From assembly GCA_039621445.1 (NCBI GenBank), contig CP154954.1, positions 14,426,387 to 14,447,599 on the forward strand: DNA of 21,213 bases. The letters are read 5' to 3'. The notes beneath the pieces were generated by a model, which was given only the letters and a program-made list of their open reading frames with translations, made no database searches and was not told the origin of the DNA. Origin of the DNA: Euglena gracilis (Eukaryota). The translations under genes and the position numbers were made by a program. The first letter of the stretch is position 1, and each line of letters starts with the position of its first letter. Positions 1,164-21,213 of the stretch are shown piece after piece.

Positions 1164-4100
1164 CTGCAAGGTCTGTTCCTCCCTACCCCTGGCTGGTGAG
1201 ACACCAGAATTGTTTCAAAAAAGTCAAAATCCAAAAAAAATTTGCCATTTGTCGCTTCAGCAGGAGCGCACCTTTTTCCAGCCTCGGTCCCCCAACGGCG
1301 TGGTTGGGCCCAGACAGGCTCAGGGATGCCTTCTGCTCTCGCAGCATTATGCCCCCCCCCGATGGCACCCTTCCCCAGACCCATTACCCCCCATCGCAGC
1401 ACCGCAATCGTTCCGCTCTAACCCTTGGGCCGCGGCGCAGCGACCGCAGCCGCGGGCCTAGAGGAGCAGCGAGGCCCCTCCTTTCGCCCGCCGCCTGTCG
1501 GAAAGCTTCGCGGGTCCAATTCCCTGGCCGTTTCAAGGGGTGCAATTACTTGTGCCCCCCCACCCCTGTCTGACCAACCCATGGTGCGTTTACCACAAAT
1601 CATTGGTCATAAGCCAAGAAGAGAGGCGCCTGCTGCGTCTCTGGATTCACCAATATATTTCATTAGAAAGTGTGTGCAGCAAGTATGCTGGTCAAGTGCA
1701 GATGAGACCAACGGTGCAGTCCGTAGTTGGGGCGTCAAAAACAATCCGCTCCAGTGTACCTTTTGCACTCCGTTCGCCCGCAACTTGCTGATTCCCCGCT
1801 TCGTTCTTCATCTGTGGTTGATGCCTCCTTCCCCTCTGTTTTCATTATCTTTTTGGTGGCTACACCCGACACCCACATATTTGGGCAATCTTTGAAAAGA
1901 ACGATCATTGAACGTTTGTAAATCAGTACAATGATGAAGCAAAGCATTTTGAATTTTTTTTGTGGTGCTAATTTTATTTGGGCACATTTTCTTCGGGCCT
2001 TCAGAATTTGGGCACGTGATTTCCTCCCATTCAAAATTGTGGGTTCTCCATCACTCCGTCCGCTTGAACCACTCCACGCACCAGGCTGCAATAATACCTA
2101 CATCTTTAATCCTTCCAGGAGCTGGCCTGCCCTCATCATCGGCGATCCCTTCTTCTTGCGCCATTGTACGTTGTACTGGCCAGGACACCCGGACAATCCA
2201 CTAATATTTTTGAGCTTCTGGCTTGCAACGTTAGAGGGGAGGGGAGGCGGCTACATTCGTGTGCGCATGAAAAATATGTCTGTTCAATTGTGTGTTTTTT
2301 TGGAGGCCAAAAGTGCTTCCAGTAGCTTTCAATGGCGTGGTTATGTGTTGCTGCTGAATCAGAAAGAGTGGTGTTTGAAGAGCCCTGGAGCACTGTGAAC
2401 AATGCGGATGAGTAAGATCATATTATGTACATATTGCAAGCAAAGTCTTTTTTAGGGTTCGACTATTAAAAACAAGGTGTACTTTATTTTTGCAAGATGT
2501 ATGGTTTACGGCAGTTGAGTTAAATACCAAGTATTTGAAATTTTTCCCAGCGTTGTGTTTTCGGCAGTTTATTTGAATGTGTAATCTCGAAAAATTGTCA
2601 CATAAAACTCTCCAAGAAATGTGAATAATTTTTTTTATGTTTGGTATGATGGCAAGCAAATTCTGCTTGTTTGTTGTTAACAGTTTTCCTTCTATCCCCC
2701 TGCTTGGTTCCCTTGTTGATCACATAGTTTGTGAGAGTCGACCTTGTCTTGCAGTGTCTCCTTTCTTTCCCTGTAACTCAATGTCAGATGATGAGAGCGG
2801 TGAACGGGGTTTGTCACAACAGATTTGCCGTGTGCATGAGTCTTCGCCTTTTTTGATGGACATAATGAAACCACATTTGCATTCCAGGGCAACAGCTTTT
2901 TTTTCCCCAGAGACCCCAACAAACGGACGCAGACTCGCAGCCAAAGGTTATTTCAATACTCTTATCAATTTCAGATTTCAGACTTTTCTGCAATGAGAGC
3001 GATTTATATTTGTGTTTCTTAGGCCTTCTATATGCACAGAGCAGTCCGATACACTACCCCAATATGGTGAAATCGAGGCCTGATTTTGCCTTTGATGTCG
3101 GGATGGATGGGCCATGGCCAAGTTGACAGTCGGGGAGCATGTTAATTCACATGATGTGCATTTTGTGCACATCTAAAAATCTCGAAATTTTTATTTTATT
3201 TTTTTGCACATTTGAAGTGCCTTGTCCCCACCAGGTCGTGCACATCCCCCGGCGGTGTTCCCAGTGGGTTCTCGAAACAGTCGCGGCAGCGGAAGTGGTG
3301 CCGGAAGAAAGAGCGGCAGAAGACATCGTCCCCGCGGCACCACCCACACCACCCGACGTGCCAACACCTCCCCGTGCCGTGGCCGACAATCTTGTGTCGT
3401 GGCAGACCAATCAACCACGTTGCATATATTCCACATTGCACAATGCCATTCCTCCCCAATGCCAAATATGGGCAGAATTTCAAGATCCGCATGGGGCGGT
3501 TATACATTTTTCATGTTCATATTTTTTTGAATTTTCTATTTTGTCAGAAAATTCATCGACCTAAAGGTCACCATTTTCCTTTGCCTGAACGTTTCTCAGC
3601 TTTCTCATCTTTCTCATCTTTGACCATCTTGAAGCATATGTCAAATTTTTGGAGCATTTTGCTTCGACGCCTTTTGCTTTTTGAAACATGTGTGTGCTGT
3701 CCAAGAAATGGGAGAGCCCTGCATTTTGTAATCAAACCAAGGGCCCCGTTAGGGGCTATACATTTGCGCACCTGCATGGGTTTTTTATGAACAATTTTCT
3801 GATTGTGCAGGTGTGGCCCGAGGGGAAAGGCGTGTGTATGCTTTGGGTACCCTCCGCAACTTTTGTTGTATCTTCCCAGCAACACTGAATCCTCTTCAGG
3901 TCGGCCCGCTCCTGCAGCATGTTTTTATTTTGCCATGAAATGTAGCGCGTAAATGTGGTACGTAAATGTAAACCTACGTATAAATGGATAAATGTTTGTA
4001 AGTGTAGTGTGTTTTATTTAGGCATGAAATTTGGCATGTAAATGTGGTATTTAAATGTAAACCAACGTATAAATGGAAAAAATGTATGTAAATGTGGTGT

Positions 4101-4500
4101 GTTTTTTTTATTTGGACATGAAATGCAGCATGTAAATGTAGTATGTAAGTGTAAATAAAGGTATAAATGCCTAAAGGTGTGGTAATGTAGTGTGTTTTTA
4201 TTTGTACATGGCCTGAAATGTCGCAGTGCGGCTTTCGGCTGTTTTTCCGCCGTCCCTCCCTAATGCAACCTGGCCACAGGACGGTCCCACCCTCCTCCCC
4301 TCGACCCCACCCTGCAGTGCGTGTGCTGTACCAAGCTGAGCCTCTACGTCCACGAGCAGGAGACGCCCCAGGACAGGGCGTCTCCTCATTTGGAGGGACC
4401 CCACCCTCTGGGGGGGCAGCCACCCAGCAGCCTGTTCCCGGACCCCGCTCTCCCCCTCGACTCACTGCTCGGCTGCCCAGTCTGCCAGCACCCTCAAAGA
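1164..4500 (+). CDS. Tentative upstream exons of the F-box-like gene (candidates 1164-1195, ~1261-1539, 2119-2165, 2911-2946, 3235-3398, 4280-~4500)
   Basis: GC-rich islands bounded by AG/GT: ccacag|..|gtgag, ccttccag|..|gtacgt, ttttccccag|..|gttatt, ccccaccag|..|gtggca, ccacag|. Exons 2119-2165, 2911-2946, 3235-3398 and 4280 onward join in one open frame (ELACPHHRRSLLLAPL-DPNKRTQTRSQR-SCTSPGG...PTILCR-RSHPPPLDPTLQCVCCTKLSLYVHEQETPQD). The start codon, the frame of 1261-1539 and the donor leading to 4917 are unresolved. Confidence 0.35.
3920..4211. repeat. Degenerate tandem repeat, about 90-bp unit, about 3 copies
   Basis: The unit start tgttt(t)attt..catgaaat recurs near 3920, 4009 and 4100, with a partial copy near 4192. 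Internal taaatgt motifs. Confidence 0.75.
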
Positions 4501-4627
4501 AAGCCCAACTCTTATCAAAAAATTCAAAATTTCAAAAATAAAAAGTTCAGTTTTTAAAAAGGAATTCGAAAAAATACCGCCTGTGAGCTGGACCATTCCG
4601 TTGCTCAAGATGCATCCGACCCGAACG

Positions 4628-4885
4628 GGTGACTGACTGGTTTTTTCGGAGTGACTGACTGCTTTTAGGCTCCGGACCCCCCCCTCCCCGGGGTGGGTCG
4701 GCCAGGATACCTGGGGCGAATATTTTTTGACCAAAATCCTTTGTATTTGGTCATTTATGGCCGAGTGACCAAAGTGACTGATCCCCCCCGGGGGGGGGAG
4801 AGGGCAGGAACTGGGTGACTGGTTTTTGAACAGTGGCTGACTGGTTTTTTGAAATTGGAAGAATACCCCCCTCCCCCGGGGGGGT
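4628..4885. repeat. Intronic repeat with gtgactgactgg motifs, same family as 268-405
   Basis: Repeated gtgactg(actgg)tttt motifs and cccc..gggg palindromes near 4783-4798 and 4866-4884. Confidence 0.65.
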
Positions 4886-4916
4886 AAGCAATGGTATGCG
4901 TTGCACCCCCCGGCAG

Positions 4917-7683
4917 GTCGTTTCGCAACGCCCTGCCGCCGAAGGACCGCATCCTGGCGGAGGACGAGGAGGAGCCGCCTTGTACGGGCCCCATCAACAC
5001 CCGCCTCCCCTACCGTGACCTGGTCGTTGCCCTGAAAGGTGCGCCGGTGCGAGTTCTCTCGTGCTGTTCACCGCGGGGCAAGTTAACCGTTGTCTTCAAT
5101 TGACCTTGTTTTGTCTCTTTTTTTTTTGTTCAACGCTTCGAGTGGTTCCATGTGATTTCCTTTGGGGCAGTTCAACCAGGGCCACAGGGCCAAGGGCCAA
5201 CAGACGCCCAAACTGTCAACTGCAAAATTATTATTATTATTATTATTATTATCCGTAATCATAAACCGGTGCCAAAACGTCAGAAAAATGTGTTTTCGAC
5301 TTTTTAATTTTTGACCCTGTCGACCCACGGATCAGCCTTTGGCCATCCCTTGGCCCAAGGGCAGTCTTTAGGGGAAAAAGGCTGATATCCAACAGGTAAT
5401 ATTTTTTTCAGTCGTCCGTTCCGATGGTGGTGAAGGTGCGGATATCCCTGAAATCCACCCGTTTTTTTAACCCAAAATACGGCCGTTTTGCGCCATTTTT
5501 TCCCTGTGGATTTTTCATTGAATGTGCTCCAACAGTATTTTTTGTCTTTTTTCTTTTCTTACTGCCCTGCCGTCATCGGGCAGGTCTGCGCCACTGACCC
5601 ACACTGCCAACCCCTTACCCTCCAGGGGGGCCGGCACTGCACTGCAACTCCGTGCAGCCTCCCCGCGTCCTGTCCCTCAGAGCCGGCAACGGGCCGGCTG
5701 AGCCCCCTGGAGCGCTGCGGGACCGACGTGCTGGATGCCATCTTTGCGTTCTGTGACGCGGTCAGGAGGTTTCTGAGGCCCGAAGGCCCCAGCAACCATC
5801 ACCCACCTGCTATTTTTTTTTATCCATCCACAGCTTTCATGTCTGCGGTAATCAAATTGCCCCAGCTAAGCTGGTTTGAAACCAAAATTCTGGGAGTTTA
5901 ATTTATTTGTGGGAATTGGGGGCCACATTTGCATTTCAAAAACCGCCACCATTGAGCCTTTAGGGGCTCGCTTGCAAAAAAAAAACTGGTTAAAATTTGC
6001 AAACCATGCACATCACGTTTTTTTTTTTTACACAGTATTTCATTTCCCCGCCGACTCCGGCCTGACAACCTGCAGAGCCCCCCCCCCCCTTGATGGACCC
6101 ACCCCCAGCAGGGGAGCCGTCGGGGGTCCTGCCCACACCACCACACTTCTCCTTGCGGGGCTGGGTGCGTGGGGGTGTTCCAACAAACCCCCCTGGACGC
6201 GGTGGACCTCATCATCTGCCGCTTCGTGTGCCCGGCGTGGTGGGCCGGGGCCAGCGGCCGGCTGTACTTCGGCGTGCTGGAGCAGAGCCGGACGGGCCCC
6301 CGGTGTGTGACGTCGGCCCGGGGCAAGTGGGCGCATGGGTGTTGCCGGTCGTTTATTTCGGGGGACGGAAAACCCAGCGTGTCACCGTCGACACTTTGCT
6401 CATTCATCGATTTTATTTATGGGGTTTGGTGGGTTTTTGAGTGTGGGTGGGTGAGTCGGGTCGCTGGACCCCCCACCCCTCCTGCCACCGCGGAGGGTGG
6501 GGAGCGCTATGGGACAATGAAGCCGAGCCGAGCCAAAAGCCACACCAGGGGTTTCGGCTTGTTTGAGGTGCTGTTTGGATGGGTGGGTGGGTAGGTTGAC
6601 CCCCGCGCGGGTTTTATGGTTGCTTGGGTTTTCAATAATAGTGGGTGGGTGGCTTTGGGCCCGGTCCCCCCCCCCCCAAGTGAATCACTGGCTTCATCCC
6701 ACGGCTCACAGAACCGTGCATTTCATTGACATTTCGATAGAAATATTTCGAAAGATTATGTATTTTTTGTGTGGGTCTTTCTGCGAATAACTGTCCAAGG
6801 TCGCCCACTCCTCTGTGTTGCAGGCTGCTGGGCAAGGTCATGCAGGCGCAGGTGCGGGTGGCCACGTCCGGCTTCCGCACGCAGCACGAGGCGCACTGCT
6901 TCCTGGAGGCCAAGTGCCTCCAGCTAACCCCCCCCCCCCCAAATAATACCCCCCCGGGGAATTATTTTTTTGCCCGAAGTCCTGGCCCGAAGGGGGGTAT
7001 TATTTGGGGGGGGGTAATAGCACCCCAAAATTTTCGAAATTTTTCGAAGTCCTGTAAGACCCAAAATAGCATACAAAGCCCCCCCTTTGGGGTCATTTTT
7101 TGTCCTTTCTCATAAAATGTAGCATTTTTGGAGGCCAGGTGATCCAGAAAAATCGATGTTTTTCGTAATTTGTTGTCAGAGATTGTCAGAGAGACATTTT
7201 TACCCAAAATTTCAGGTCAAAATCCGGGTCGTCGGCCCGAGATTGGGGGGGGGGTATTAATTCGGTGGCCGAAGTCGGACCCCAAGGGGGGGTATTATTT
7301 GTTTTGGGAAGGTAGGCCCAAAAGCTGCCAAAAAAGGCCAAAGTGTGGGCAAAAGTGCCCAAAAACGGCCAAAAGGAGTGCCAAAAAGTGGCTAAGGGTG
7401 GCCATGTTGTTGGACAGTGGTGGGCAAAAATGGCTAAATGTGTGGCAAAAGTTGACAAAAGTGCACAAAAGTGGCCAAAAGTCATCTTTGTCTCAGAACA
7501 AATTCTTCCAATATTGTGGCCGGGACCCCACCTCCAGTGTTCAAACCCGACAAATCCCGACAAATCCCGGCAAATCCTGTCAACACCACCAAAATGACAA
7601 GTGCCTGGAAGTGCTTGCTGTCGGCACAGGAGAAGACGGAGCGCCGACGGTCGTCGAAGCGGCACGACCAGGCATCTGCTTAA
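4917..7683 (+). CDS. F-box-like protein, C-terminal exons 4917-5038, 5681-5759, 6201-6302, 6824-6915, 7613-7683
   Basis: Exons join in frame: SFRNALPPKDRILAEDEEEPPCTGPINTRLPYRDLVVALK-EPATGRLSPLERCGTDVLDAIFAFCDA-VDLIICRFVCPAWWAGASGRLYFGVLEQSRTGPR-LLGKVMQAQVRVATSGFRTQHEAHCFLEAKC-LLSAQEKTERRRSSKRHDQASA*. Introns 5039-5680 (gtgcg..ctcag) and 6303-6823 (gtgtg..tgcag) are GT-AG and phase-consistent. LERCGTDVLDAIFAFCDAVDLIICRFVCPAW matches the F-box pattern L..LP.E++..IF.+L...+L.....VC+.W. The last exon is less certain. Confidence 0.78.
5228..5252. repeat. (TTA)n microsatellite
   Basis: About 8 tandem TTA units. Confidence 0.9.
5760..6200 (+). other. Euglenid-type nonconventional intron
   Basis: Borders c|ggtCAG...CTGgacgc|g: Y|R at both ends, CAG at +4..+6 (5763-5765), CTG at -8..-6 (6193-6195). 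The ends pair (caggaggttt with aaacccccctg; cccagc with gctggg further in). There is no AG at the 3' junction. Removal restores the F-box motif in frame. Confidence 0.85.
6916..7612 (+). other. Probable second nonconventional intron, repeat-filled
   Basis: t|gcctcCAG...CTGgaagt|g has Y|R borders and paired ends. The ccag...ctgg core (6920-7608) is flanked by aagtgcct (6912-6919) and aagtgctt (7609-7616). The exact boundary can slide within aagtgc. CAG lies at +6 rather than the usual +4. Confidence 0.55.
7315..7580. repeat. Short tandem repeats (ccaaaaagtgg-like units, then cccgacaaat x3)
   Basis: Degenerate 10-12 bp units over about 7315-7482, and cccgacaaat/cccggcaaat at 7546-7575. Confidence 0.75.
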
Positions 7684-7710
7684 CGGTTGACAGTCCCCCC
7701 CGGAGGCGAT

Positions 7711-8105
7711 GCTGGCAAGTCCCAAATTGATTAATTAATTGGGGCTAGTCCCAATTTGACTGTTGGAAATGAGACGCCCCCTCCCCCCCTGGCGAGGGTC
7801 CCGCTAACAACCGGAAAACCGGGACCCACTGACCAGAAATTTTTGGAACCTCAAACCCCACCATTAATGCACATTTCTGGCATTTTTTTTTTGGGATTCT
7901 GTGGAACAAAATGAGGCAAAGAAAGCTCATTAAAAGTCTTATTTCCATCTCCGGGGGGTAGCCCTTGAGGAATTTTTTTCCAGTGGGAGGGACCCCCGGA
8001 CCACCCAGTCCAGGCCAGTGGCGGGTGGGGGGGGGTAAGGCTGGGGAGTTCTAGTGGATAGTAAGTGGTGTTGGCCACTGGACCCCCTTAAGCAAAAGCT
8101 TGGGC
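7711..8105 (-). other. Candidate nonconventional intron on the minus strand, ending in a dispersed-repeat terminus
   Basis: On the minus strand cat|gccCAA...TTGccagc|atc gives Y|R borders, CAA at +4..+6 and TTG at -8..-6, joined in phase 0 into an open frame. Segment 7969-8102 resembles 20941-21072. Confidence 0.4.
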
Positions 8106-8376
8106 ATGACCGCATGCCGGCGGAAGTGCGAGCTGCTCAGGCTGTGCCGCGGTGCTGGCACCGCTTCTTTCAAGTGTACTCATCATTTTTGGGAAGAAGC
8201 GTGCGTGTACTGCAGTCCAACACAACAGCATCAGAAATGTGCTACGATTTAATGAGTGAATGGTGTCCGAACACACTACATACATACACACGTCATACAA
8301 TACACACGTCATATACAATACATTACATAGACACACACGTCGTATGTATGTATGTATGGATGGATGGATGGATGCC

Positions 8377-8441
<65 letters not shown>

Positions 8442-8444
8442 GCA

Positions 8445-8475
<31 letters not shown>

Positions 8476-9696
8476 ATGTATGTATGTATGTATGTATGTA
8501 TGTATGTATGTATGTATGTATGTATGTATGTATGTATGTATGTATGTATGTATGTATGTATGTATGTATGTATGTATGTATGTATGTATGTATGTATGTA
8601 TGTATGTATGTATGTATGTATGTATGTATGTATGTATGTATGTATGTATGTATGTATGTATGTATATATGTATGTATGTATGTATGTATGCATGCATGCA
8701 TGCATGTATGTATGTATGTATGTATGTATGTATGTATGTATGTATGTATGTATGTATGTATGTATGTGTGTGTGTGTATGTATGTATGTATGTATGTATG
8801 TATGTATGTATGTATGTATGTATGTATGTATGTATGTATGTATGTATGTATGTATGTATGTATGTATGTATGTATGTATGTATGTATGTATGTATGTATG
8901 TATGTATGTATGTATGTATGTATGTATGTATGTATGTGTGTATGTGTGTATGTGTGTATGTATGTATGTATGTATGTGTGTATGTGTGTATGTGTGTATG
9001 TGTGTATGTGTGTATGTATGTATGTATGTATGTATGTATGTATGTATGTATGTATGTATGTATGTATGTATGTATGTATGTATGTATGTATGTATGTATG
9101 TATGTATGTATGTATGTATGTATGTATGTATGTATGTATGTATGTATGTATGTATGTATGTATGTATGTATGTATGTATGTATGTATGTGTGTGTGTGTA
9201 TGTGTGTGGGCATGTATGCATGTATGCATGTTTGCGTACCGAAGCTCTGGAGCTCTGAAGAAGCAGAAGCTGGCGGCGCCCCCTGCCAGTCGGCTATTGC
9301 CCCCTCGCAGTGCGGAAGGGAATGCGGTTCTTCTTCCCGTACGTAGTGTTCCAGAAAGGGATGATGGCCACGCAGCTGAGTTGATAACATATAAATTCCG
9401 GTCAAAACTATCAAATATATTGAGGGGGGTGCATATCGGGCCCAGGCGCCCAACCGACCCCTCAAATAGCCTGCTAATTTTGATTTAATCCACCCCTTCC
9501 TGACCAATTGACACATGCCCACCACCCCAAGTGCTTCGGTGGGGAGGATGTCTCCTTTTTTAACTAGCCATCTTGGCTGAAGTTGGGGGCGGTGGCAGCC
9601 ATCTGCGGAGTGCGTCAATACCGTAGTCTTATGGGCAAGGGATCCAGTGAGTTCGTTTCACCCAAAAGCAGGAAGTGGGGGCTGGTGGACTTCGTC
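8088..9696 (-). CDS. Tentative multi-exon gene of unknown function (exons 9696-9662, 9602-9523/9526, 9375-9240, 8209-8106 or to stop at 8088)
   Basis: GT-AG junctions (cacacag|, |gtgaaa..tattgac..ccgcag|, ctcag|, |gtacgc..ctgcag|) are phase-consistent and give TKSTSPHFLLL-DGCHRPQLQPRWLVKKGDILPTEALG(V)-LRGHHPFLEHYVREEEPHSLPHCEGAIADWQGAPPASASSELQSF-VHARFFPKMMSTLERSGASTAAQPEQLALPPACGH. An alternative frame in 9375-9294 (CVAIIPFWNTTYGKKNRIPFRTARGQ*) cannot be excluded. Further upstream exons are likely near 10060-10232 and beyond. Confidence 0.42.
8342..9230. repeat. Compound microsatellite (TATG)n with (GATG)n, (TCTG)n and (TG)n blocks
   Basis: Directly visible, about 890 bp. It accounts for all six long YVCM/HTYI ORFs and lies in the predicted intron 8210-9239. 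Confidence 0.98.
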
Positions 9697-10989
9697 CTGT
9701 GTGAATTACATGCAAGATGCGTTGTGCTTCCCCAGTGTATTTTCCCAACACACTTTGCTTTGATTTCAATCAAACTCTCAATGTGAGTATTCATTTTGAA
9801 GGCACATGTAAATTTTGTATTGTTATGAATGGAGTCCATAATTTCGTAGTTCATCACTGCTTGCCTGAGAATTATTAATTTGATTCATTGAGTATAAACC
9901 TGGGATTGCATGATTCATCCAATGTTCCTTGCTTTTTTTGACCATATTCAATTTTAATAATATATTGCTCGTTGTTTCACCAATGAATCAGCTTAACCAT
10001 GCGAGTGCATTTTTGCTTTCCTTTTTTATTTCAATCCCGATCAAAGGTGGTGGATCAACTGCTGCGTGCTCCAGACAAAGCACGCAGTATTAACGTTCGG
10101 CCTTCGGAATTGTGAGCTGTTCCCCGTCCCGTGGACCGCGGTGTTGGCTCCCCTGTGACGAATCCCCCGTTGGCATCTGCCAGCCTCGTCTGAAATGCCA
10201 TATTGTCATCCCTTCCACCGGCGATGCAGCTGCAGTATAGCAATCAGCAAACAGCAAATCAGGAAAACGGGTATAACATTCAGCAAACAGCAAACCAGCA
10301 AAAAGGAAATCAGAAAGGATATAAAAATAAAAAAATGTTAGTTTTGAGCGTTGAGTTTGAGCATTGAGTCATGCAAATGAACGCCTGAATAATGAGATGG
10401 ACGCTCATTGCAATGTTTTCTAGGTTGGAAAATCAATAGAAAACAAATATATGAGATAGGCTTTTTTACATCCACCTGAAAGCGGTTACCTTCTTATTGG
10501 AAAACGTGTATTCACAAATTGTTCTGACACAATACCGAAAGATCGATGAACCTAGTTGCCTTATGAAATCCAACAAGTCAGTCCCCACCGTTGCTGTCAG
10601 TCCCTACAGCTAATTGTTGTGTTGGCCCCTGTTCCAAAGCGAGGCTGCAGCCTCCAATTTGCTTTTCTTTGCACTATTTTTCTTTCGTGATGTGTCTGTC
10701 TGCCCGCCCCACCCGTCTCCCCCTCTTGGCCCCATCCATTGACCCGTCCCCTGTTTTAACCCCAACTTGGTGCCGTACGTCGGGCCCATTCCGCTGCTTG
10801 TTGACGTTCCCGGAGGGGGGAAAGAGCTGATTTGCTTTTTCCCCTCCTTTGATGACAGGACCTTCCTGCGGGACGTATATTATACCAGTAGCGTTCACAC
10901 GTATGTTAAACATATTGCTTTAATAAATACATGGATGTTATGTATAATATAGAGAGTAATGTATGCATACAACATGCAATGCATGCAAA

Positions 10990-11075
10990 GTAATATATAG
11001 TATATATGTATATGTATAAATACAGTATACATATAATGTGTGTATATATACATGTATACATATACATATATACTA
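10990..11075. repeat. Degenerate (TA)-rich simple repeat
   Basis: tatata/tatgta/tataca runs. Confidence 0.7.
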
Positions 11076-11493
11076 ATACTAGCAATTGTATGGACCCCTC
11101 CAGGGGGCACACATAGTTCCAGGGGGGGTCCTGACAGTTCCCATCTGGTCCAAACTTTTCGTTCCATTTCGCCTGGGAAGCGTGGCGAAATTGCACGTTT
11201 TTTTTTTGTCTGATTTGGGAGGATATGTGCATACTTGTAGGAATGGGGTTAGGCTGGGATTGACGGGCCGTAAACTGCCCCCGATTATGAAGACCGGAAG
11301 TTAGGTGGCCGGTTGGGAAGATTTAACCCGTTTTGCCCAAAGAATTGCTGGAATTTGGCCTAAATTCTCCCCAAAATGGTCCGGAATGCGGCCTAACCTC
11401 TCCCTAAATTCCCAACAATGAGATCCTCACGGCAATTGGGCCGGGACCCAAACCCCAACCCAGAAAATAAACTCCGACTGTCACCGAAAGTGG

Positions 11494-11495
11494 GT

Positions 11496-11574
<79 letters not shown>
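11494..11574. repeat. (TG)n microsatellite
   Basis: Nearly uninterrupted TG run. Confidence 0.97.
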
Positions 11575-11575
<1 letters not shown>

Positions 11576-12674
11576 ATGCCACTGGTATATACACAGGCGA
11601 GTGCTGCCGTTGAAGAATAGGATTGGTTGATTGGCAACCAGGAACCATATGGACACCCTCCCGGGAATTCCAGATAGCTCCTCCAGGGGGGAGGGGGTCC
11701 AACTAATTCCACCTGTCATGCACACATACCCAACACACAGTGGTTGGGGTTGGGTGGTTCGATGTGTGTGTTCACTCTTTGGGATCGTGTGGGTGAGTTC
11801 TCCAGGAAAATGGGACGGTGGGTTTAGTTTGGGAAAGGATGAATCTCTGGTGGGTGATTTTCGTGGACTGCTGTGGTTGGGGACCATGGAACAATACTGG
11901 ATTCCCCCGAAAACCGTCCCATGCATTGAAAAATAGCTGCGCATTTTACAACCCCTCTGTGGTCTTCTCAAAAATATCGTCCTTAATAATGCCAGAGTTG
12001 ACGTTGCATATTAATTCATTTAGTGCCTCCTGTGAGCACCAAAAGATGTATCTTTTGTTGTTTGCCCCCCCCATAGGCAAGCACTGGTGTGGTGAGGCCA
12101 CTTCTGCTGGCCTCGTATATGTATACCAGCCAAGTGCAGCCTTGACTGTCCTGGCAGTATGCTGCTGTGCCATGGTGTTATTCTGGTTCTGGGTCAGATG
12201 AGAATGACATATGGAGGTGGTGTTTTTGGTTACGATAAAGTGCGGTGAAAATTTTCACCACATCTGGAGTTGGAAGAGAAAGGAATATGCACAATTTACC
12301 ACTACCAACATACACAAGAACACCACACAGTTTTCCCGAAGAAAAATGTGTGAGGAAAACAGGGTTGTTCTGCGGGAAGGTATTCAGCAGTTTTTCGCCA
12401 ACTACCCCGGCTCAATACCCCCGCCTCGTGCCCCCCAATTTGCCCAACTCCCAAAGTTGGCCCTCGGCCTGTTGGAGCAAAAATGGTCCGTCCGGCCAAG
12501 GAGCCAAGAGTGGGCGGGTGGGTGCCTCACCAGCCGCAGCCAGTCAAAATCTTAGTTGCTCCGACCAGAAAATAAATCACAATCAAACGCCTGAACAAAG
12601 AACAAGGCCTGACCCACACCCACAGCATAGGGCGAGGAATCGGGTGTGTATCAAACTGGTTCCGACAGAATATG

Positions 12675-13160
12675 CAGGGGGGGGGAAAAATGCGTTTCAC
12701 ATTTTTTCGCATTTTTGCGCATTTTTTGCGCATTTTTTCAAATTTTCCAAAAATGCGCATTTTTGCGCATTTTTTCGCATTTTTTGCGCATTTTTTCGTT
12801 TTTTTCGGCGCATTTTTTTGCTTTTTGGCACATTTTTTCGTGACTTTCCAAAAATTTCGCATTTTTTGACCATTTTTGCAATTTTTTGCAAAAATTTGAA
12901 ATTTTCGACTTTTTTTGAAACTTACATTTTCCTCATTATTCTACATAATTTCTTCAAATTTGGTGCCATTTTTGCATGTTTTTGGGTAATTTTTGCATTT
13001 TCGTGATTTATGTGCATTTTTTCTCAGATTTTGCACATTTTTGCGCATTTTTTCCAAAAATGCGCATTTTTTGCGCATTTTTTTGCGCATTTTTGCGCAT
13101 TTTTGCGCATTTTTGCGCATTTTTTCCGAGGCCAGGCGAGCGCATTTCCCCCCCCCCCTG
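12675..13160. mobile_element. Non-autonomous TIR element (MITE) with CAG...CTG ends and a 7-bp TSD
   Basis: TIRs ca(g)9aaaaatgcg and cgcattt(c)11tg. gaatatg lies directly on both sides (12668-12674, 13161-13167). The interior is made of tttttgcgca repeats. Confidence 0.88.
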
Positions 13161-14334
13161 GAATATGGCGGTCAACATACTCAGGCGTTTCTGGGCCATC
13201 TTCTGGAATCCGCCCCAATTATCTGGCTTCCACTTTCTGAATGGTTGTCTTCCAAGCCTTGTGAAAGAAACCATCCAAATGTTGGGAATACAGGACAAGG
13301 CAAACAAGGTACCCATGGCCTGGGGTCCGTGTCACACAGCCCGCAGCTACCACACGACCACACTGTCTGCTTGACGCCCTCCTCTTGGGAGGAGGCGGGG
13401 CGGCCACCCCGGATCTCCAAAGAGGCATGCCCGTTTGGCGTGCGAACCTTCTCGGCCCTCCACCCCTGGGCCTGTGCTACGTCCCCTCCCCTGACTAAGC
13501 ACCCCCTTTTTCTTCCCCAGCGTTTTAAAGTTCATCTTCTTGGGGAGGTTTATTTTGTGTGCCTTTTTGAGAGAAATTCCTCGAAATTTTCGAATTTTCA
13601 AAATTTTCTGAAGCCTGATTTGGAAGATATTGTTAACAATTGGTTTTTGTATCCAAATGCCTGCAAATGCAACAGTGAGCCAAATTAAGGGAATTTTACT
13701 GGTGCGAAGCACCGGTTTTTTCTTACAGAAAAAAATATCTCGGCACGCCTCCCCCTCCCCTGGTTCTTGCCCGTCATTTCCGGTTCTCAGACAGGGGGGT
13801 GTTGGAATTAGGTTGTAAAAAATATTTCTGGGATTGGCGGCAATTGTCTGGTGTTGTTCTTTTACACCTGCAAATGAAGAAGTTAAAAAAGAATTTGGGT
13901 TTTTGGTCAATTCTGCTGGGTTCGAAAATTTGGGTCCATCAAAAGGGCATAAGATTCGAACATCCAACCTCCAATTCACTGTTTTTTCAATATATTTTTG
14001 CTAGAAACCACCAAGGGCTTAATTTTTATTGTTTTCTTTGACTAACTCCGGCCTTAAAATGAATTTGTATTTATTTTTTTCTGTTGGGGCTCCCAAGAAC
14101 AAGAAATTTCTTACTCCGACTCCTGTCCCCAATTTGCTTTTTATGGACTTGATTAACATGTTTTATGTGATTTGTCGTCTGGATGGTCTCCTACAAATCA
14201 GGATTTAGTAGTTTTTTTTTTTATCTGGTCTTCAGGTAATTTTTTATATTTTTATCTCCACCTCTGCGTTTATGTAAAAAAGGGTGATGCTCTTGTGTCA
14301 CCACACCAACCCAGAATTTTTTCTAGTTGTCGTG

Positions 14335-14530
14335 ACCTGGGGGGTGGGCGGGTCCCCGGGTCGGCCCGAGTGGGTATCCCCAGAGGCAGGATTTTCTTCT
14401 ATTTCAGCGTGAACCGCTGAAGAAAAATTTGGACCCCAAAATTGACCCCCCCCCCAAAAGTGGGTCCACCAACTCCCCCCTCCCCCCCCCCCAGGGGACC
14501 CCAGTGGTTGGGTCTGGACCCACCCCAGGT
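14335..14530. mobile_element. MITE-like inverted-repeat segment
   Basis: acctggggggtggg(cg)ggtcc is inverted relative to ggacccaccccaggt. No TSD found. Confidence 0.45.
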
Positions 14531-16043
14531 GCTCTCTCCCCCCAACAGACGCGGGACATTTGTTCAATTTCGTTCAATCCAAGCGGTTCTATTGGCTGGC
14601 TCCCGTTCAGCCACGTCCACTCCCTTCGGCAGCGCCGGCCCTCTGGCGGACCACCACTGACCCTTTGGCTGCCATAGGCAGCCACTCCCGGACGAACGCT
14701 TTCCTGAAACCAGGAGGGGGGAGTGTCTGCCCAAGCCTGGTCACGTAGTTGCCAACGGCGATGAGGGAAATGAAAATTTATAAAATAAAAAATAAAATAA
14801 AATGATTTTATTTTTATTGATTATTTTTATTGATTTTATTGAAGCGTGTAATGTCTTTCAAGGGGAACCGCGGCAATTTGTGTTCTGGAGGCTCTTTCGT
14901 CAACTTTTCATCATTGGTTAGGCACCTCAGGAAAGCCTTCCCGGATGCCTAGAACACCTCCGACTGCTGTGTGGACCAGCGGGTTGTCGCATTTTCGGGC
15001 ATGCCCGTCTGCTACAACAGCAACCATCTTTATTTTATGATTTTTACTTTGTATGCTTTTCACATTCTGCATTTTTGTTTGCATGTGACGGCACCCATCA
15101 ACAGAGTTCGCCCAACACAGTTCACAACAGTGTTTACCCATGGAATCCTTGCCTTACACACACGTAGGGATTTTGTTATTGATGGCGGGCTGTGCGAGGG
15201 AGGGCGACTGCCCCCCCCCCCCCACCAGGAGGGTTGGCCGACTAATTTCATTTGAGTTTGGGTCTGGGTCACGGTGCACCGCTGGTTTTGCCATTTTTCA
15301 ATTATTTTTTAAATATGGGACGTTTTTTGAGAGTTTCTAGGTCATCCTGGAGCACTTCCATCAATTTGAAACCAAATTCAATTTGAGGGCGGGCGGGCTT
15401 AATTTTTAATTTCAAAGAAGGGGGTATTGTACAATGTGGTACAGTGTTTTTTTGGATGAAAAGTATTTGCATGTACAGTATAATATTGATCGAGCAAAGG
15501 AAGCAATGAGAAATAGTGTGCAATGAATACATTTTTCCTAAAGCACTCATTGCACATTTGACGTCTGGCAGAGAAGTGTACATCCCAGGGGATGTACAAA
15601 GAATTTATTTCCGATTTGCATTTTTGAATTTTTTTGCATTTTTGTGGTAATTTGTTTTGGCATCAAGAGCCCCTCTTCTTCAACTTATGCAAATGTTGCC
15701 TAAAATCTTCCACGTGCTAACGTTCATATGGGCATGCCGCCATCCCCTGCCATCACAGCATTGGTCGCGCGAAAGCAGCGCCAGTCAGGGGTTTACTCAA
15801 CGACCCCGGGAGTGTTCCTGTGGATTGTACCCCCAAAATGTGGTCGCAGACGGTCAAGCAATGTATGTTAGTGAAGGTTGTGCACGTTTCCGCCTCAAAA
15901 TGTTTTTGGATAAGAAACCCAATCCACCTGGATTCGGGCTCTTTTTGGCGCCAGCCAGGCCTCGCCCGGGCTGCCAACTGGGACAAGTCGGCGGGCCAAC
16001 TGCCAAGTTTGCATGTTAATAATTGCGAGGCTAAATTCCTAAA

Positions 16044-16235
16044 GCCTAGAGGGGGGGGGGCAAGGTCAAAAGCTGGGGGGCTAAGTTTGTATGCAATGAG
16101 CAGGCGGGCCAAGCGCCTGGCGTTTGGCACTTCGCTCCGCCAGACTGGGCTAAAGTCACCCTTGCTTTGTATCAACAGACCCTTGCTCTCTGAAACCCAA
16201 TGGCTGGTGGGGAGGTCGACCCCCCCCCACTAGGC
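16044..16235. mobile_element. MITE-like inverted-repeat segment
   Basis: gcctagaggggggggg is inverted relative to cccccccccactaggc with one mismatch. No TSD found. Confidence 0.45.
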
Positions 16236-16608
16236 GGAAATACGCTTTCCGCATGTTTCAGAAAGGCGGATTTCCACCTTCCGAAAATTTCAAAATGTTA
16301 AAGGGGATGCCCACCCCGCAGTGCTGGAACTGCATGGAACTTCAGCCCGTTTTATCCGCATGCAAACACCTTGAATGATTTACCGCATTTTTTTGGTCAC
16401 TGCTCGATACTTCCAGCCAGAAGTGGTCAAATTGGCCCAAGGAGGCAAAAAGTCGCACAAAACGACCAGAGTTGCCCTTGATGGCCCGAAACAGCCAATG
16501 AGGCAAAAACAAGTTGTTTATATGTTTGTTTAACGGCCTGCAGTGCCGCGCACTGCCATGTAATGCCACGCAGTGCCCACACATTGCACTAATTGGTGGG
16601 CATCCCCA

Positions 16609-16729
16609 CAGATTTCTTTTCGTCCCGAGGGAATTTTTCCTTGTCCAGGTTCTGCAGTGGGTGGGACCCGGCCTTCTCGTACAGCCTATCCCCCCCCCCC
16701 GGGTGTGGGGTAGGGGTAAGAAACCCCTG
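16609..16729. mobile_element. Short CAG...CTG element with a 6-bp flanking direct repeat
   Basis: Ends cagatttctt and aagaaacccctg form an imperfect inverted repeat. tcccca lies at 16603-16608 and 16730-16735. Confidence 0.45.
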
Positions 16730-17227
16730 TCCCCAGGTCCGCTACTGGACTCTGGCCAATCCCTCGCCAGGGGGTGGCTATTTTTGTCTGGTGCATCATG
16801 TTTTGTTTTGTCATGTTTTCACATGGCCATCCATCCTCGGGAAAAATTCCTGAACTTTTTCAGTGGGTGGGCAAGACTGTTTGATTTCTCAGGTGGTGTT
16901 GATGGGATTAATTTACTTGAAATTTCTTGCTTGTCACTGAGACGTAAGTGTGGACAATACGTCCCCACTTTTTTGAAAAGATGTTTTTGTGACATTTTCT
17001 CGAAGTTTCTGGGGTTTTGTTTGCATTAATTTTTGCTGTTGCTTTTCTCGGAGAATATGCATGTACATTTATGCTGCAAGGAAGGAATGAAGCCCATTCC
17101 AAAAAAAATGCCAAAATGCACCCGCTTTCAAAGTTTATGCAAATTTTTTTCTGCCTCCGGCGTAGGTGTGAGCTGTCCTGATACCCCTTAAGGTCCTTGT
17201 CTTTGGCCACAATATATAAGCATCCAT

Positions 17228-17465
17228 ATATTCTAAATGCCCCTTCCGAGGGGGGGGGCATTTAGAGTTTGCAGGGGGTCAAAGTAGTCTTTTTGTGTTA
17301 ATGATGGTATAGGGTTAGGTGCGCGACTTAGGGTGTTAGGTGTACAAGTTAGGCCTAACCCTAACCCTAAGTTGCGCACCTAACCCTATTCCATCATTAA
17401 CGCAAAAAAGAGTTAACTGCCCCCTGGACACTCTAAATGCCCCCCCGGGGGGGCATTTAGAATAT
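17228..17465. mobile_element. Foldback (whole-length palindromic) element with central TTAGGG/CCCTAA units
   Basis: atattctaaatgcccc and ggggcatttagaatat ends. The arms stay complementary to the centre (ttaatgatggtatagggttaggtgcgc vs gcgcacctaaccctattccatcattaa). A TA TSD is possible. Confidence 0.85.
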
Positions 17466-19123
17466 GGCTGCCATATATATTATATGTGTGTATACATGTA
17501 ATTTTAAATTGACATATAAGCATAAACATTTAAATTCCCTCTATCTTCTCTGTCCCCTTGCTTTGCAGTCGACCACGGAGAGTTCCACTGCGCATATTAT
17601 ACCGCTGAGAGAACGTCCCTCAATCATTTCCCAGTTATCTGGCTCTTGTTTTGGCTTCATCCCTCTTCGCTTTGATCTGCAAAAGCATTTTTCCCCACCT
17701 TGAGGAGCTTTGTGAAGCCGTAGGGGGGGAACTTCCTGTTGCACAGAAACAGATTTGCAAAGACTTTTTTAGCTGGAATATTTAACTTCGTATGGGAAAA
17801 GACTTCAACGTAAAATATTTCACATATGTCATTCTGCAATTATGATATGAAGGCCCCATTTGGACCAATTTTTTACCTCACTGGTTAATACCTTGTTCCG
17901 TAAGATGCTCCAGAGAAGTGCCATTTTAACAAAATCAACAAAAACGAAGAGTGCATCACAACAAGGGCAGCCAAATCAATGCGCTCCGGCTCTGAATGCA
18001 AGCTTTGTTGGACGTGCAGGAGCTTTCACTCCTCCCCTGGAATTAGGGAGGGCGGACGTTCCGATACCCACCAATATTGTTGTACATTAGTTGACGACTT
18101 TCCTGAGTTTTTGTTTGTGTTTGTGCTTGTGCGCGAAAGATCAAGGATCATCTTGCTGATTTGTCAGCTCTGTTTATTTGTTTTATGGGTACATGGGTGT
18201 GCAGATAAATGATATCAGTCAATAATCATTCACAGTTCGCTGATTCTTCACCCTGGGTCAGTGTTACAATTGCTGATTTGTTGTTTTTTTTTTTTGCACA
18301 GCAAGTGTGTTATCGAAATTTTGTATTTTTACCTGAGCCTTGAAGTACTACACATGTATTCTTTCTTTGTTGTGTTTCTTTGTTATGTGAAGAAAATCGG
18401 GGGTTTCAAAACTGTACCCAGCTTCCAATTTTTATTGAGTGCCACCCATTGCCTTTGCCAGTCTTCTTTGATTTTCCTCTCGGCGGCGGATAATGTGTTT
18501 AGCTTTGGTTTAGTTTTAGTCCAGCAACCTTTGTTTTTGGTGATATTATTGACCACCAAACTATATCTCAAGTTCTTTCTTAGGCTTACTAGGGACACCG
18601 GCATCTTCCAACACCGACAGGTGGGCAGTCACCTGGATCCTGACAGTTCCTCGGGGGCGACACTCTCCCGGGAATAAATGCAGCAACCCCCCCCCCAACG
18701 TGAGGGAGGTTGCACTGCAGGATTGGTCAATGATGATCAATTTTGGACCACTTGCAGTCCCTTTCCCGCCCGATCAGAGGTTCCTTAAAGACGAGGGCGA
18801 GCACCCACTCACCCCCCCCACCCTCAGCCCCACCCCCCCCATGGGAGTGTCTGAAGACAGCTAACTGCTGTTGGGTGGTCAAATTTGGATCCAAAACATT
18901 TTTCGGCATTGCATTCAGAGGGTACCTCTGGGAAGGGGTTCACCTCCTGTTCCGTGCGAGACGCCGAGAAACGGGACCTCGAATTGAGCTGAAAAAGTTA
19001 GTCCTGGCCCCCTCCCGGGGGGGCTTACCGTAGGAGGAGGTTCGATCTCGAACGTTCGAGCTCGAACCTCCTCGAACGTTTTTAAGCCCCCCCTTCAAGG
19101 GGGGGAAGGGGGGGGACTTAAAA

Positions 19124-20633
19124 CAGGGGCAGGGAGATATTCCGGTCCGGAATAAACCGGAATAAACCGGAATAGCGAAAACCGGAATAAACCGGAATAA
19201 ACCGGAATAACCGGAATAAAAGTGCCAGCCAATAGCTTGAAAATTCTGCAAGACACAAAGGCAATGAAGGTGATACTTTCAGGTTTCAAAGCCACAAGAG
19301 CAACAAAAGAGCGCAAGCATAGCACAATCGGCATTTGATATCAGGAGCACACCTTCACTTTGCCTGTTTCTTCCCCTGATTGAATGCATTTTTTGTTTGG
19401 ATTTTATCCCCACTTGTGGGGCTGCACTTAGTGAATGTTTGTCCCTGAGTTCTTTCCAAAGGGACATGAACTAGAACAATATCTACGCTGTGATCTTTGG
19501 GGGCAGGGATCCCATTGGACAAAGCGAGGGGGTAATAACACTCTCAGGCGACCTAACTCGCACTTCAGGTTTTGATTTTTGCATTGCGTTTAAGCGCAAC
19601 GTTGCATTCTTTTTGAAGCCCAGCGGTGAAACCCACCCTTTTGGCCCTCTGGTTCCGCGGGGACCTTCCACGGTAGCACGTGTATCGTTTGCGGTTGTTG
19701 GGACCCAGGAAACAGGCCCTTTTGGTGTTTTTAAGCCTGTGCTCTATTTTGAAAGGGTTCAAAACTCCGGGGGGTTTAGGCTCTGCGATCTGTCCATTGA
19801 AGGTTTGCCTGCCCCAAGACCTTTCGCTTGGTACCGACAGAACTCAGCCACATTGCACAGCTCTCTGAAAATCGGCGGTCGCATTTTCCGACCCTGTTTG
19901 GAAATTCGAAATTCCTTTTTTCAGCTCCCATGTTGCCCATCGATTGAAAGCTCTTCTCAAGGGCTTTCAGCAGATGGCCTTAGATTTCTGCCATGCTGCA
20001 TGGTATTCTATTTCCCCAAAATTGGCCGAATGGAAATTGTTATACAAAAAAACCCAATTTCTGGCAGAAGACCCACCAAAAGACTGGCCAGATGTGCTTA
20101 CCACATGACTACAAACCATTTTGGGCACTTTTGGGCAGTTTTGATTTTGGGTCCTCCACACGCCAGCTTCAAGCCCGAACCGGCGTCACAGACACCGGTT
20201 CGGGTGTGAAGCCGGAGCCCCCAGACATGGTTTCAAAGCTAAGTGCGAGTTAGGTCGCCTAAGACACTTGGCAGGACAATTTTTGGGAAGGAAAAAAAGA
20301 CAGCGGTGCCAGGGACCCGCCTCAAGAGAAAACCCCAAGAACCAATTTTCATCGGCTTGTTTTTCCCAAAAAGGCCGGGGCTGTGATGTGATGTGATGAT
20401 CCGCATCACCAAGTGCGAAGTGACCACTTGGCGGGGTGGGGCAACCCCATTCGTGTAGCCCGGGTGAGCGCCTCGGCCCAATTGTACTTCGAAAAAATCC
20501 GAAGTCCATTCAGACAGGAATTGACCGGAATAAACCGGAATAAATTACGGAATAAACCGGAATAACCCGGAATAAACCGGAATAAAACACCGGAATAAAA
20601 TTTTCGGCCGACCGGAATATCTCCCTGCCCCTG
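19124..20633. mobile_element. Non-autonomous DNA transposon with CAGGGG termini (hAT- or P-like)
   Basis: Perfect 24-bp TIR caggggcagggagatattccggtc / gaccggaatatctccctgcccctg. cttaaaa is duplicated at 19117-19123 and 20634-20640. ccggaataaa subterminal arrays lie at both ends. No transposase ORF is recognisable. Confidence 0.92.
19542..20264. mobile_element. Inner TIR element nested in the CAGGGG element
   Basis: Perfect 20-bp inverted repeat aggcgacctaactcgcactt (19546-19565) / aagtgcgagttaggtcgcct (20241-20260), extending 4 bp outward with one mismatch. cac flanks both sides (possible 3-bp TSD). Confidence 0.78.
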
Positions 20634-20940
20634 CTTAAAAACGTTTGAGGACCCTCCTCGAACGACCTCGAACGACATTCGAGGAGGGTCTCGAACCTCC
20701 TCGAACGACCTCGAACGACGTTCGAGGAGGGATTTTAAGTGGACCCCCCCGGGAGGTGGGGGGATCCGCTGGCAGGGCTAGCCAGTGAAAGTTTTTGTTC
20801 CAGTTGCTGGCGCGAAGTGCCGAAAAGATTTCTGGGACCCCCCAAAACTGGCCAAATGCCCACATTTGGCCATTTTTTGGACAAAGTCTGCCAAAACCCC
20901 ATTAAAAACCTCACTTCTACCTCGGCGCACAGCACCAGAG

Positions 20941-21072
20941 GGAATTTTTTTTCTTCAGTCGGAGGGACCCCCGGACCCCCCCCTTGGAAGGGGGGTTCTA
21001 GCTGGTCCATTTTTTCCCAGCTCGTCCAAAATTTTAGCCAGTGGACCCCCCGGGGCCTTAATCAAAGGCGTG
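20941..21072. repeat. Dispersed repeat terminus shared with 7969-8102
   Basis: ggaatttttt..cagt.ggagggacccccggacc and gcca.tggacccc..ccttaa.caaa.gc.tg occur in both places in the same order. Confidence 0.7.
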
Positions 21073-21213
21073 GTGTGGATGAATTGCATGGCATTGGGCT
21101 GCAAGCCCCGGAGCAGGGGCGACAGCGATCGCATGCCAATCAAGCCAGGAAGTGGACCGGTCGGGTGATAATTTCCACACTTCCCCACCCGTGGTGGATC
21201 TTCAACTGCCCCA

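Follow-up and report, generated by a model that had tools for sequence, protein, structure and literature searches.

A 21,213-nucleotide stretch of the Euglena gracilis genome (GenBank assembly GCA_039621445.1, contig CP154954.1, positions 14,426,387 to 14,447,599 of the forward strand), referred to here as the window and numbered from its first letter, holds two free-standing sequences that begin with CAG and end with CTG, as do the cores of several euglenid nonconventional introns in the same region. These sequences, named element 1 (12675-13160) and element 2 (19124-20633), are very probably abundant non-autonomous transposons that duplicate 7 bp of target, lie outside exons in this region and carry ends that mimic the nonconventional-intron signal, and a third candidate (element 3, 16609-16729) is not mobile. 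The origin and excision of nonconventional introns have been a question since the 1990s. An earlier sequence-only reading of the window had proposed that all three sequences belong to a pool of CAG-ended MITEs (transposable elements of the miniature inverted-repeat type). This stood for elements 1 and 2, on account of their inverted repeats, 7-bp direct repeats and DNA depth, while element 3 had to be withdrawn.

The two elements were singled out by a scan of every CAG...CTG pair lying 40-3000 bp apart in the window. When a pair had to show both 10 or more inverted-repeat matches out of 12 and a flanking direct repeat of at least 6 bp, two structures were retained, namely elements 1 and 2, each with a 7-bp repeat; 200 order-2 Markov shuffles yielded 0.015 on average (any such structure appeared in 3 of the 200). 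Without the inverted-repeat criterion, pairs with a flanking repeat of at least 6 bp number 12 in the window and 9.76 on average (maximum 18) in 100 order-2 Markov shuffles, and those of the 6-bp class number 6 in the window and 6.9 per shuffle. Terminal trinucleotides together with a short repeat are thus no evidence alone, since they occur at the chance rate.

Element 3 falls in that last class, and it is regarded as single-copy DNA whose 6-bp flank repeat arose by chance. Its arms match at 9 of 20 positions without gaps, its CAG and CTG are unpaired in the minimum-energy fold, which lacks a terminal helix, and its bin depth (128.8) is at single-copy level. Single-copy unitigs of both DNA runs described below (16554-17283 and 16564-17319) cross it uninterrupted. 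Moreover, five of the six bases of its supposed left duplication, CCCC included, are the terminal bases of another repeat, located at 16303-16607.

The termini of element 1 are CAGGGGGGGGGAAAAATGCG and CGCATTTCCCCCCCCCCCTG, and its interior is an array of GCGCA-T(5-7) units set between CAGGGGGGGGG... and ...CCCCCCCCCCCTG ends. The bases just outside its two GAATATG copies are mismatched (A versus G), and the duplication is therefore of 7 bp and not of 8. Element 2 has perfect 24-bp arms (CAGGGGCAGGGAGATATTCCGGTC), inward of which the subterminal repeat CCGGAATAA occurs six times at 19147-19211 and six times at 20525-20590, always on the + strand. Both of its flanking copies read CTTAAAA exactly, so that the 7-bp duplications given by the sequence-only reading are confirmed by direct inspection. 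The outer base of both copies is A. The extra A after the right copy would also accommodate an 8-bp duplication (CTTAAAAA, with the left copy minus one A) at the cost of one extra mutation. That reading had also singled out the length of the A-run on the left flank (19120-19123) as a point to be verified; no indel is seen there among the 12 of 48 indel rows listed, and the 8-bp alternative stays compatible with the sequence.

No coding capacity was detected in these structures. The four internal open reading frames (ORFs) of element 2 show no transposase and no Pfam family at threshold, the sole row obtained being Adenine_deam_C (E=0.32), below its cut-off. Pfam likewise returned no family at threshold on 10 translated stretches of the window, and the 23 Rfam matches up to E=0.1 are all below gathering scores and all on hairpins or microsatellites.

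The abundance of both families was evaluated by comparing positions 12000-21213 with two DNA runs (X1 and X2), a run presumed to be RNA, and an RNA-seq run. Single-copy bins have a summed DNA word depth of ~90-130 in X1, a value that rises to 1.0-1.1 million in the bins of element 1 and to 116,000-589,000 in those of element 2. Both elements are thus at ~10^3-10^4 times single-copy depth, and X2 agrees with X1. The claim that the genome hosts abundant CAG-ended inverted-repeat elements is in this way borne out by two of them. Unitigs end at 12672 and resume at 13181, around element 1, and loose ends in the DNA runs mark 19273, 19928, 20014 and 20446 as points where other copies of element 2 part from it, as expected for deletion derivatives with common ends. 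The exact 22-nt end of element 2 has 0 matches in metagenome contigs and 0 in viral contigs. The pattern (GCGCATTTTT)x3 of element 1 occurs at 25 metagenome loci, which have the tandem part in common and no termini; 3 of 182 BLAST rows reach slightly past this tandem part, and a regular expression for the ends found nothing.

Element 2 is itself inserted in a palindromic repeat. When the element and one 7-mer are taken out, the inner palindrome of the host is restored, with AACGTTTTTAAG pairing with CTTAAAAACGTT, and host-repeat copies without element 2 are represented in DNA contigs by the joints 19091>20667 and 19093>20651. An end related to this host repeat is found at 955-990. A repeat family with the ends GTTTTTTAAGCCCCC / GGGGGACTTTAAAAC is also present at 640-985 and at 19075-19123/20634-20645, the copy around element 2 being a mini-version of ~50 bp. 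Another inverted-repeat element is nested within element 2, with a possible 3-bp duplication (CAC) at 19539-19541 and 20265-20267, and on the basis of this duplication it possibly belongs to a transposon class other than that of its host.

RNA reads (run X21, about 5% of which was read) cover short blocks at ~12097-12174 and ~13347-13469, and within 14464-15079, 15696-16003 and 17544-18159. The 3' end of the first block was placed by the GT at 12175 and the bin sum. RNA depth is 88 at 13399, ~1 at 13481 and 0 in the bin 12308-12615. Because RNA-covered blocks lie on either side, depth between them is zero and the borders show GT and AG, element 1 appears to reside inside a GT...AG intron, 12175-13346. 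The bins flanking elements 1-3 have RNA depths of 0 to 0.4, which supports, at the available resolution, the earlier statement that they are outside any exon. Absence from mature mRNA between two exonic flanks, a feature of nonconventional introns, is seen for intron 5 of the upstream gene (gene 1, see below) and not for elements 1-3.

The blocks around element 1 are connected to sequence further upstream by 29 RNA reads that join 12096 onward to ~10753-10782, compatible with a GC...AG intron at 10784-12096. This intron has a 4-nt GGCC repeat at both borders and starts ~600 bp past the stop codon of gene 1. Since it follows that stop codon, the blocks downstream of gene 1 would be a separate transcript or a spliced 3' untranslated region. 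No protein match was obtained for these downstream RNA-covered exons, either in a word-indexed search (covering 127-406 aa only) or with phmmer against 1.84 billion representatives (0 matches). A minus-strand ORF that stays open when element 1 is removed was also considered and discarded as a coincidence, as it has no homologue (in a search of 58-188 aa only) and no RNA depth.

The ends of the elements were compared with the published splicing signals of nonconventional introns. These introns carry CAG and CTG at +4 to +6 and -8 to -6 (PMC4770533, PMC11282704), and knock-in experiments have defined the code 5'-N3-CDG...CH'G-N5-6|R (PMC12501133). The 5' spacer is strictly of 3 nt, with no tolerance of +/-1. 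The 3' spacer works best with 5 nt; with 6 nt the abundance of the transcript drops by 30-40%, and with 4 nt ~20% of the wild-type transcript is left. Fully synthetic 50-bp introns built from these rules alone undergo splicing (all in PMC12501133). The 3+5 splice offsets invoked by the sequence-only reading are therefore those of the experimentally defined code. Elements 1 and 2 agree with these published cis-requirements, as both show N3-CAG...CTG-N5/6 plus a purine with the trinucleotides paired: after CTG+N5 there is an A in element 2 and a T in element 1, which has a G after N6. As for pairing, CAG and CTG are joined in the minimum-energy RNA folds of both, at the base of an uninterrupted 11-bp terminal helix in element 1 and of a 24-bp one in element 2. 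The same pairing is found in the folds of introns 5, 8 and 9 of gene 1.

According to these data, elements 1 and 2 are very probably non-autonomous cut-and-paste DNA transposons of E. gracilis, the first MITE-sized and the second a 1.5-kb composite deletion derivative. Both end in CAGGGG...CCCCTG inverted repeats and would have been inserted with a 7-bp staggered cut made by a transposase encoded elsewhere, and their families count among the genome's most abundant repeats. Here they occupy non-exonic positions, element 1 in a conventional-looking intron of a transcribed locus and element 2 nested in a palindromic repeat, in DNA essentially absent from mature RNA. Their ends bear the cis-features read by the nonconventional-intron machinery, with CAG and CTG paired at the hairpin base, and on that ground both may plausibly be living relatives of the elements that seeded the introns. 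They belong to families other than those of the intron elements of the window, with duplications of 7 versus 8 bp.

Table 1. Positions of the elements, their flanking repeats and the other features of the window (first letter = 1).
Feature	Position	Strand	Remarks
Element 1, probable non-autonomous inverted-repeat transposon (MITE), 486 bp	12675..13160	.	inverted repeat 18/20
Element 1, left target-site duplication GAATATG	12668..12674	.	same as 13161-13167
Element 1, right 7-bp duplication	13161..13167	.	
Element 2, probable non-autonomous inverted-repeat transposon, 1510 bp	19124..20633	.	inverted repeat 20/20
Element 2, left 7-bp duplication CTTAAAA	19117..19123	.	same as 20634-20640
Element 2, right 7-bp duplication	20634..20640	.	
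Palindromic host repeat carrying element 2, CCTCCCGGGGGGG...CCCCCCCGGGAGG	19011..20756	.	
Separate inverted-repeat element inside element 2	19542..20264	.	24-nt arms, 96%
RNA-covered exon upstream of element 1	12097..12174	+	depth 41 at 12152
RNA-covered exon downstream of element 1	13347..13469	+	boundaries inferred; AG at 13345-13346
Intron 5 CAG...CTG core (comparator)	5763..6195	+	exact 8-bp GACGCGGT at 5755-5762 and 6196-6203
Gene 1, F-box-like, EG_transcript_15752 homologue	2781..10158	+	11 coding exons, 10 introns
Repeat with 13-nt arms GGGGATGCCCACC	16303..16607	.	bin depth 17,825

Gene 1 provides the introns with which the free elements can be compared. Its stop-free frame 6094-6591 matches the EukProt protein EG_transcript_15752 of EP00667_Euglena_gracilis (P0002) at 100%, and a protein of EP00668_Euglena_longa (P0003) at 94%, in both cases over the queried part, and the 11 coding pieces into which P0002 splits fall on the + strand between 2781 and 10155. 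These matches mark the stretch as nuclear DNA of E. gracilis or of a very close relative. Three of the ten introns are conventional (I4 and I6 GT-AG, I10 GC-AG), five fit N3-CDG...CHG-N5 (cores 2805-3251, 4374-4935, 5763-6195, 7669-8102 and 8138-9285), and the other two, I2 and I7, agree with neither code where the protein allows their borders to lie. The code-fitting ends are CGG...CCG in I1, CAG...CTG in I3, I5 and I9, and CAG...TTG in I8, whose borders were placed by hand, the window having one Ser codon more than P0002.

Intron 5 is a euglenid nonconventional intron. P0002 is continuous across it (...AIFAFCDAVDLIICRF...) and equals the window minus 5763-6195 and minus one copy of GACGCGGT. 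The 8-bp case is thus a genuine intron, whose excision takes away precisely the element and one of the two duplication copies, as had been anticipated. By the 3+5 code it spans 5760-6200, and GT-AG occurs in none of its nine possible registers. When the two 8-mers that border the trinucleotides are compared in each of the five introns fitting the code, 6, 5, 8, 7 and 1 of 8 positions agree (27/40), while shifted-offset controls give means of 2.09-2.36 of 8. Four of the five introns keep 5-8 matches, a picture that, judged from the flanking letters, would look like that of 8-bp target-site duplications in decay. These scars agree with the 8-nt direct repeats that a gapC intron gained recently in E. 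agilis is reported to have (PMC4770533).

The likeness of the free elements to the intron elements extends to CAGG/CCTG and no further. The sequence-only reading had held that intron ends and free elements share a family resemblance, which is not supported beyond this point. CAGG/CCTG is itself the known intron consensus, G/C at +7/-9 being present in 31 of 55 introns (PMC4770533), and the motif CAGGGGTTT, noticed in part by that reading, adds a weak, post hoc signal (4 matches versus 0.68 expected, a count of 4 being reached in 2 of 100 shuffles). A self-BLAST of the window, which yields five repeat pairs outside microsatellites, links neither element 1 nor element 2 to the end of an intron. 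Inverted-repeat matches number 8-14 of 20 in the introns found here, versus the values listed in Table 1 for the two elements.

Several features of the remaining introns of gene 1 and of its sequence are worth recording. I2 (3371-4287) and I7 (6912-7626) are possibly composite, or else removed in steps; I7 carries CTG+N6 on the 3' side, lacks CDG at +4 and contains nested palindromic repeats with a perfect 23-nt arm in 6932-7014. I9 (8138-9285) contains a (TGTA)n/(TGTC)n microsatellite ~900 bp long, shows no duplication trace (1/8) and is followed by a pyrimidine instead of the preferred purine. A 74%-identical repeat is common to the interior of I8 (7922-8006) and to non-genic DNA beyond element 2 (20894-20981). 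With regard to P0002, the window shows a Thr/Pro difference (3356), a Lys/Gln difference at an exon end (6912) and the extra Ser codon (~7650), and at ~1% of single-copy positions the DNA runs X1 and X2 are unlike the window; this indicates allelic, strain or paralogue differences. An 18-mer at 9565-9582 has two mismatches to the dinoflagellate spliced-leader core, and it is judged a chance match, as 4 of 100 shuffles also produce one. A dinoflagellate origin of the window, which this 18-mer and the introner literature had suggested, was discarded in view of the Euglena protein matches.

The sequence-only reading had gone further and postulated a filter, by which insertions with 8-bp duplications are erased exactly and tolerated in coding exons, while families with 7-bp duplications survive only in introns and intergenic DNA. 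The idea is coherent with the published code: since 3+5 splicing removes the element plus 8 nt, an insertion with a 7-bp duplication would end in a -1 frameshift. The code is experimentally defined and has a rigid 5' spacer; the exact removal of intron 5, the flank matches of the five code-fitting introns and the E. agilis repeat all point to 8 bp, and the two free elements, with 7-bp duplications and the required hairpin, are non-exonic. On the other hand, the comparison opposes two free elements to five introns in one window, and it is confounded with family identity, as another transposase with a fixed 7-bp cut would account just as well for the difference between 7 and 8. The loss of 1 nt does follow from the code, and the absolute form in which it was stated proved too strong, given the residual transcript obtained with a 3' spacer of 4 and the splicing obtained with one of 6 (PMC12501133). 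Such a filter is accordingly a possibility, and a doubtful one.

A wider version can be advanced just as tentatively. The 3+5 rule might be the RNA-level mirror of the 8-bp cut of one CAG-ended lineage, in which case excision would reverse the insertion exactly, while its 7-bp sisters with the same CAG:CTG hairpin (elements 1 and 2) would be recognised, mis-restored and excluded from coding exons. Duplication length would then split the mobilome into intron-competent and intron-incompetent families, and the free elements would represent the long-sought living source population of nonconventional introns.

Elements 1 and 2 could also be introns in waiting, spliced out of RNA as nonconventional introns wherever they are transcribed, the pre-mRNA around element 1 included. 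This is rather unlikely. Both have the sequence code and the terminal helix described above, and rules of this kind are enough to have the synthetic introns spliced. However, the intron around element 1 would be taken out in any case, and conventional introns reportedly go first (PMC11282704). Furthermore, spliced joints at the borders of the two elements (12671/13166 and 19120/20639) are absent among the 15 of 323 joints listed.

The combination of CAG-type termini and 8-bp duplications is a hallmark of the hAT superfamily, and the two elements might be ordinary hAT-type transposons whose 8-bp duplications have each lost one base. The A that follows the right copy of element 2 allows such an 8-mer (CTTAAAAA). 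Element 1, however, has no homopolymer next to it and no 8-mer alignment fits its flanks (the left and right 8-mers match at 2 of 8 positions), and two independent 1-bp losses leaving perfect 7-mers would be needed, which makes this explanation improbable to a high degree. Finally, that the elements are chance inverted repeats or assembly artefacts, an idea encouraged by a genome rich in G/C runs and palindromes, hardly deserves credit in view of the two structures found where shuffles give 0.015 per window and of their massive repetition in two independent DNA runs.

The interpretation of elements 1 and 2 as abundant 7-bp-cut transposons must nevertheless be weighed against several points that speak against it. 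A second copy of either family was not found in the window, so that the 7-bp duplication has n=1 per family, and the duplication of element 2 could be of 8 bp after the loss of one A. The window contains no transposase, and no empty-site allele appears among the 15 of 323 joints listed. The 10^3- to 10^4-fold excess is one of summed word and contig depth, which is depth and not copy number. Likewise, the exon borders around element 1 were deduced from 308-bp depth bins together with GT/AG, and not from displayed spliced reads.

One further repeat of the window has CAG and CTG in its sequence. It is a 'Russian-doll' palindromic repeat at 17228-17465 (bin depth 314,098), other copies of which diverge at 17331 and 17409. 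Its inner CAGGGGG...CCCCCTG pair (17272-17426) is flanked by inverted and not by direct repeats, and its CAG and CTG, lying within a longer arm, are not the end of an element.

The proposal that nonconventional introns derive from MITEs dates from 2013-2014 (PMC3935182) and recurs in papers of 2024-2025 (PMC11282704, PMC12501133, PMC12621601, PMC11170887). The 2014 paper states that transposable elements had not then been identified in euglenids (PMC3935182), and the 2025 paper on the splicing code regards the origin of the introns as unclear and suggests MITE-like elements (PMC12501133). The 3+5 geometry and the 8-nt repeats are already in print. Literature searches, which did not extend to supplementary datasets, found no account of Euglena CAG...CTG inverted-repeat families that are free-standing and high-copy, and no publication that sets the length of their duplications against the splicing offsets. 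The presence of abundant, intact transposons with a CAGG...CCTG hairpin beside a gene whose introns carry 8-bp scars offers candidate families for the MITE-origin hypothesis, and the window furnishes a prediction, the relation of duplication length to coding context, that is testable genome-wide.

Among known systems, MITEs and non-autonomous hAT-like elements share with elements 1 and 2 the inverted repeats starting with CAG, the target duplication, the high copy number, the lack of ORFs and the nesting into other repeats. The differences lie in the duplication, which is of 7 bp here and of 8 bp in hAT elements, and in the 1.5-kb size of element 2. Galileo, a member of the P superfamily from Drosophila, exhibits the same 7-bp duplications, internally repetitive ends and foldback-like appearance, but it has no sequence relationship with the Euglena elements, its target consensus is GTAGTAC and not GAATATG or CTTAAAA, and the host here is a euglenozoan (PMC2775673).

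Introners, described in Micromonas, Aureococcus, Polarella and Amoebophrya, are similarly inverted-repeat transposons in which the insertion and its duplication can be removed from mRNA. The Polarella classes have duplications of 3, 4, 5 and 8 nt depending on the family (bioRxiv 10.1101/2020.10.14.339549), and introners of the Amoebophrya type, with repeats of 3-5 nt (PMC7789003), were considered as a match for the elements and do not fit. Introners make use of spliceosomal GT/GC/GA-AG sites provided by the element or the duplication, whereas the cut in Euglena is set by the distance from the CAG:CTG helix, and no intron of the window resembles element 1 or 2.

The euglenid nonconventional introns themselves (Milanowski et al. 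2014, 2016; PMC12501133, 2025) differ from elements 1 and 2 in being flanked by exons in mature RNA and in implying a repeat of 8 bp instead of 7. Elements 1 and 2 also belong to very high-copy families and have long perfect inverted repeats, unlike the introns found here. Both kinds of sequence nonetheless have the same CAG(G):(C)CTG base of the hairpin, short direct repeats on their flanks, a variable length and no coding capacity.

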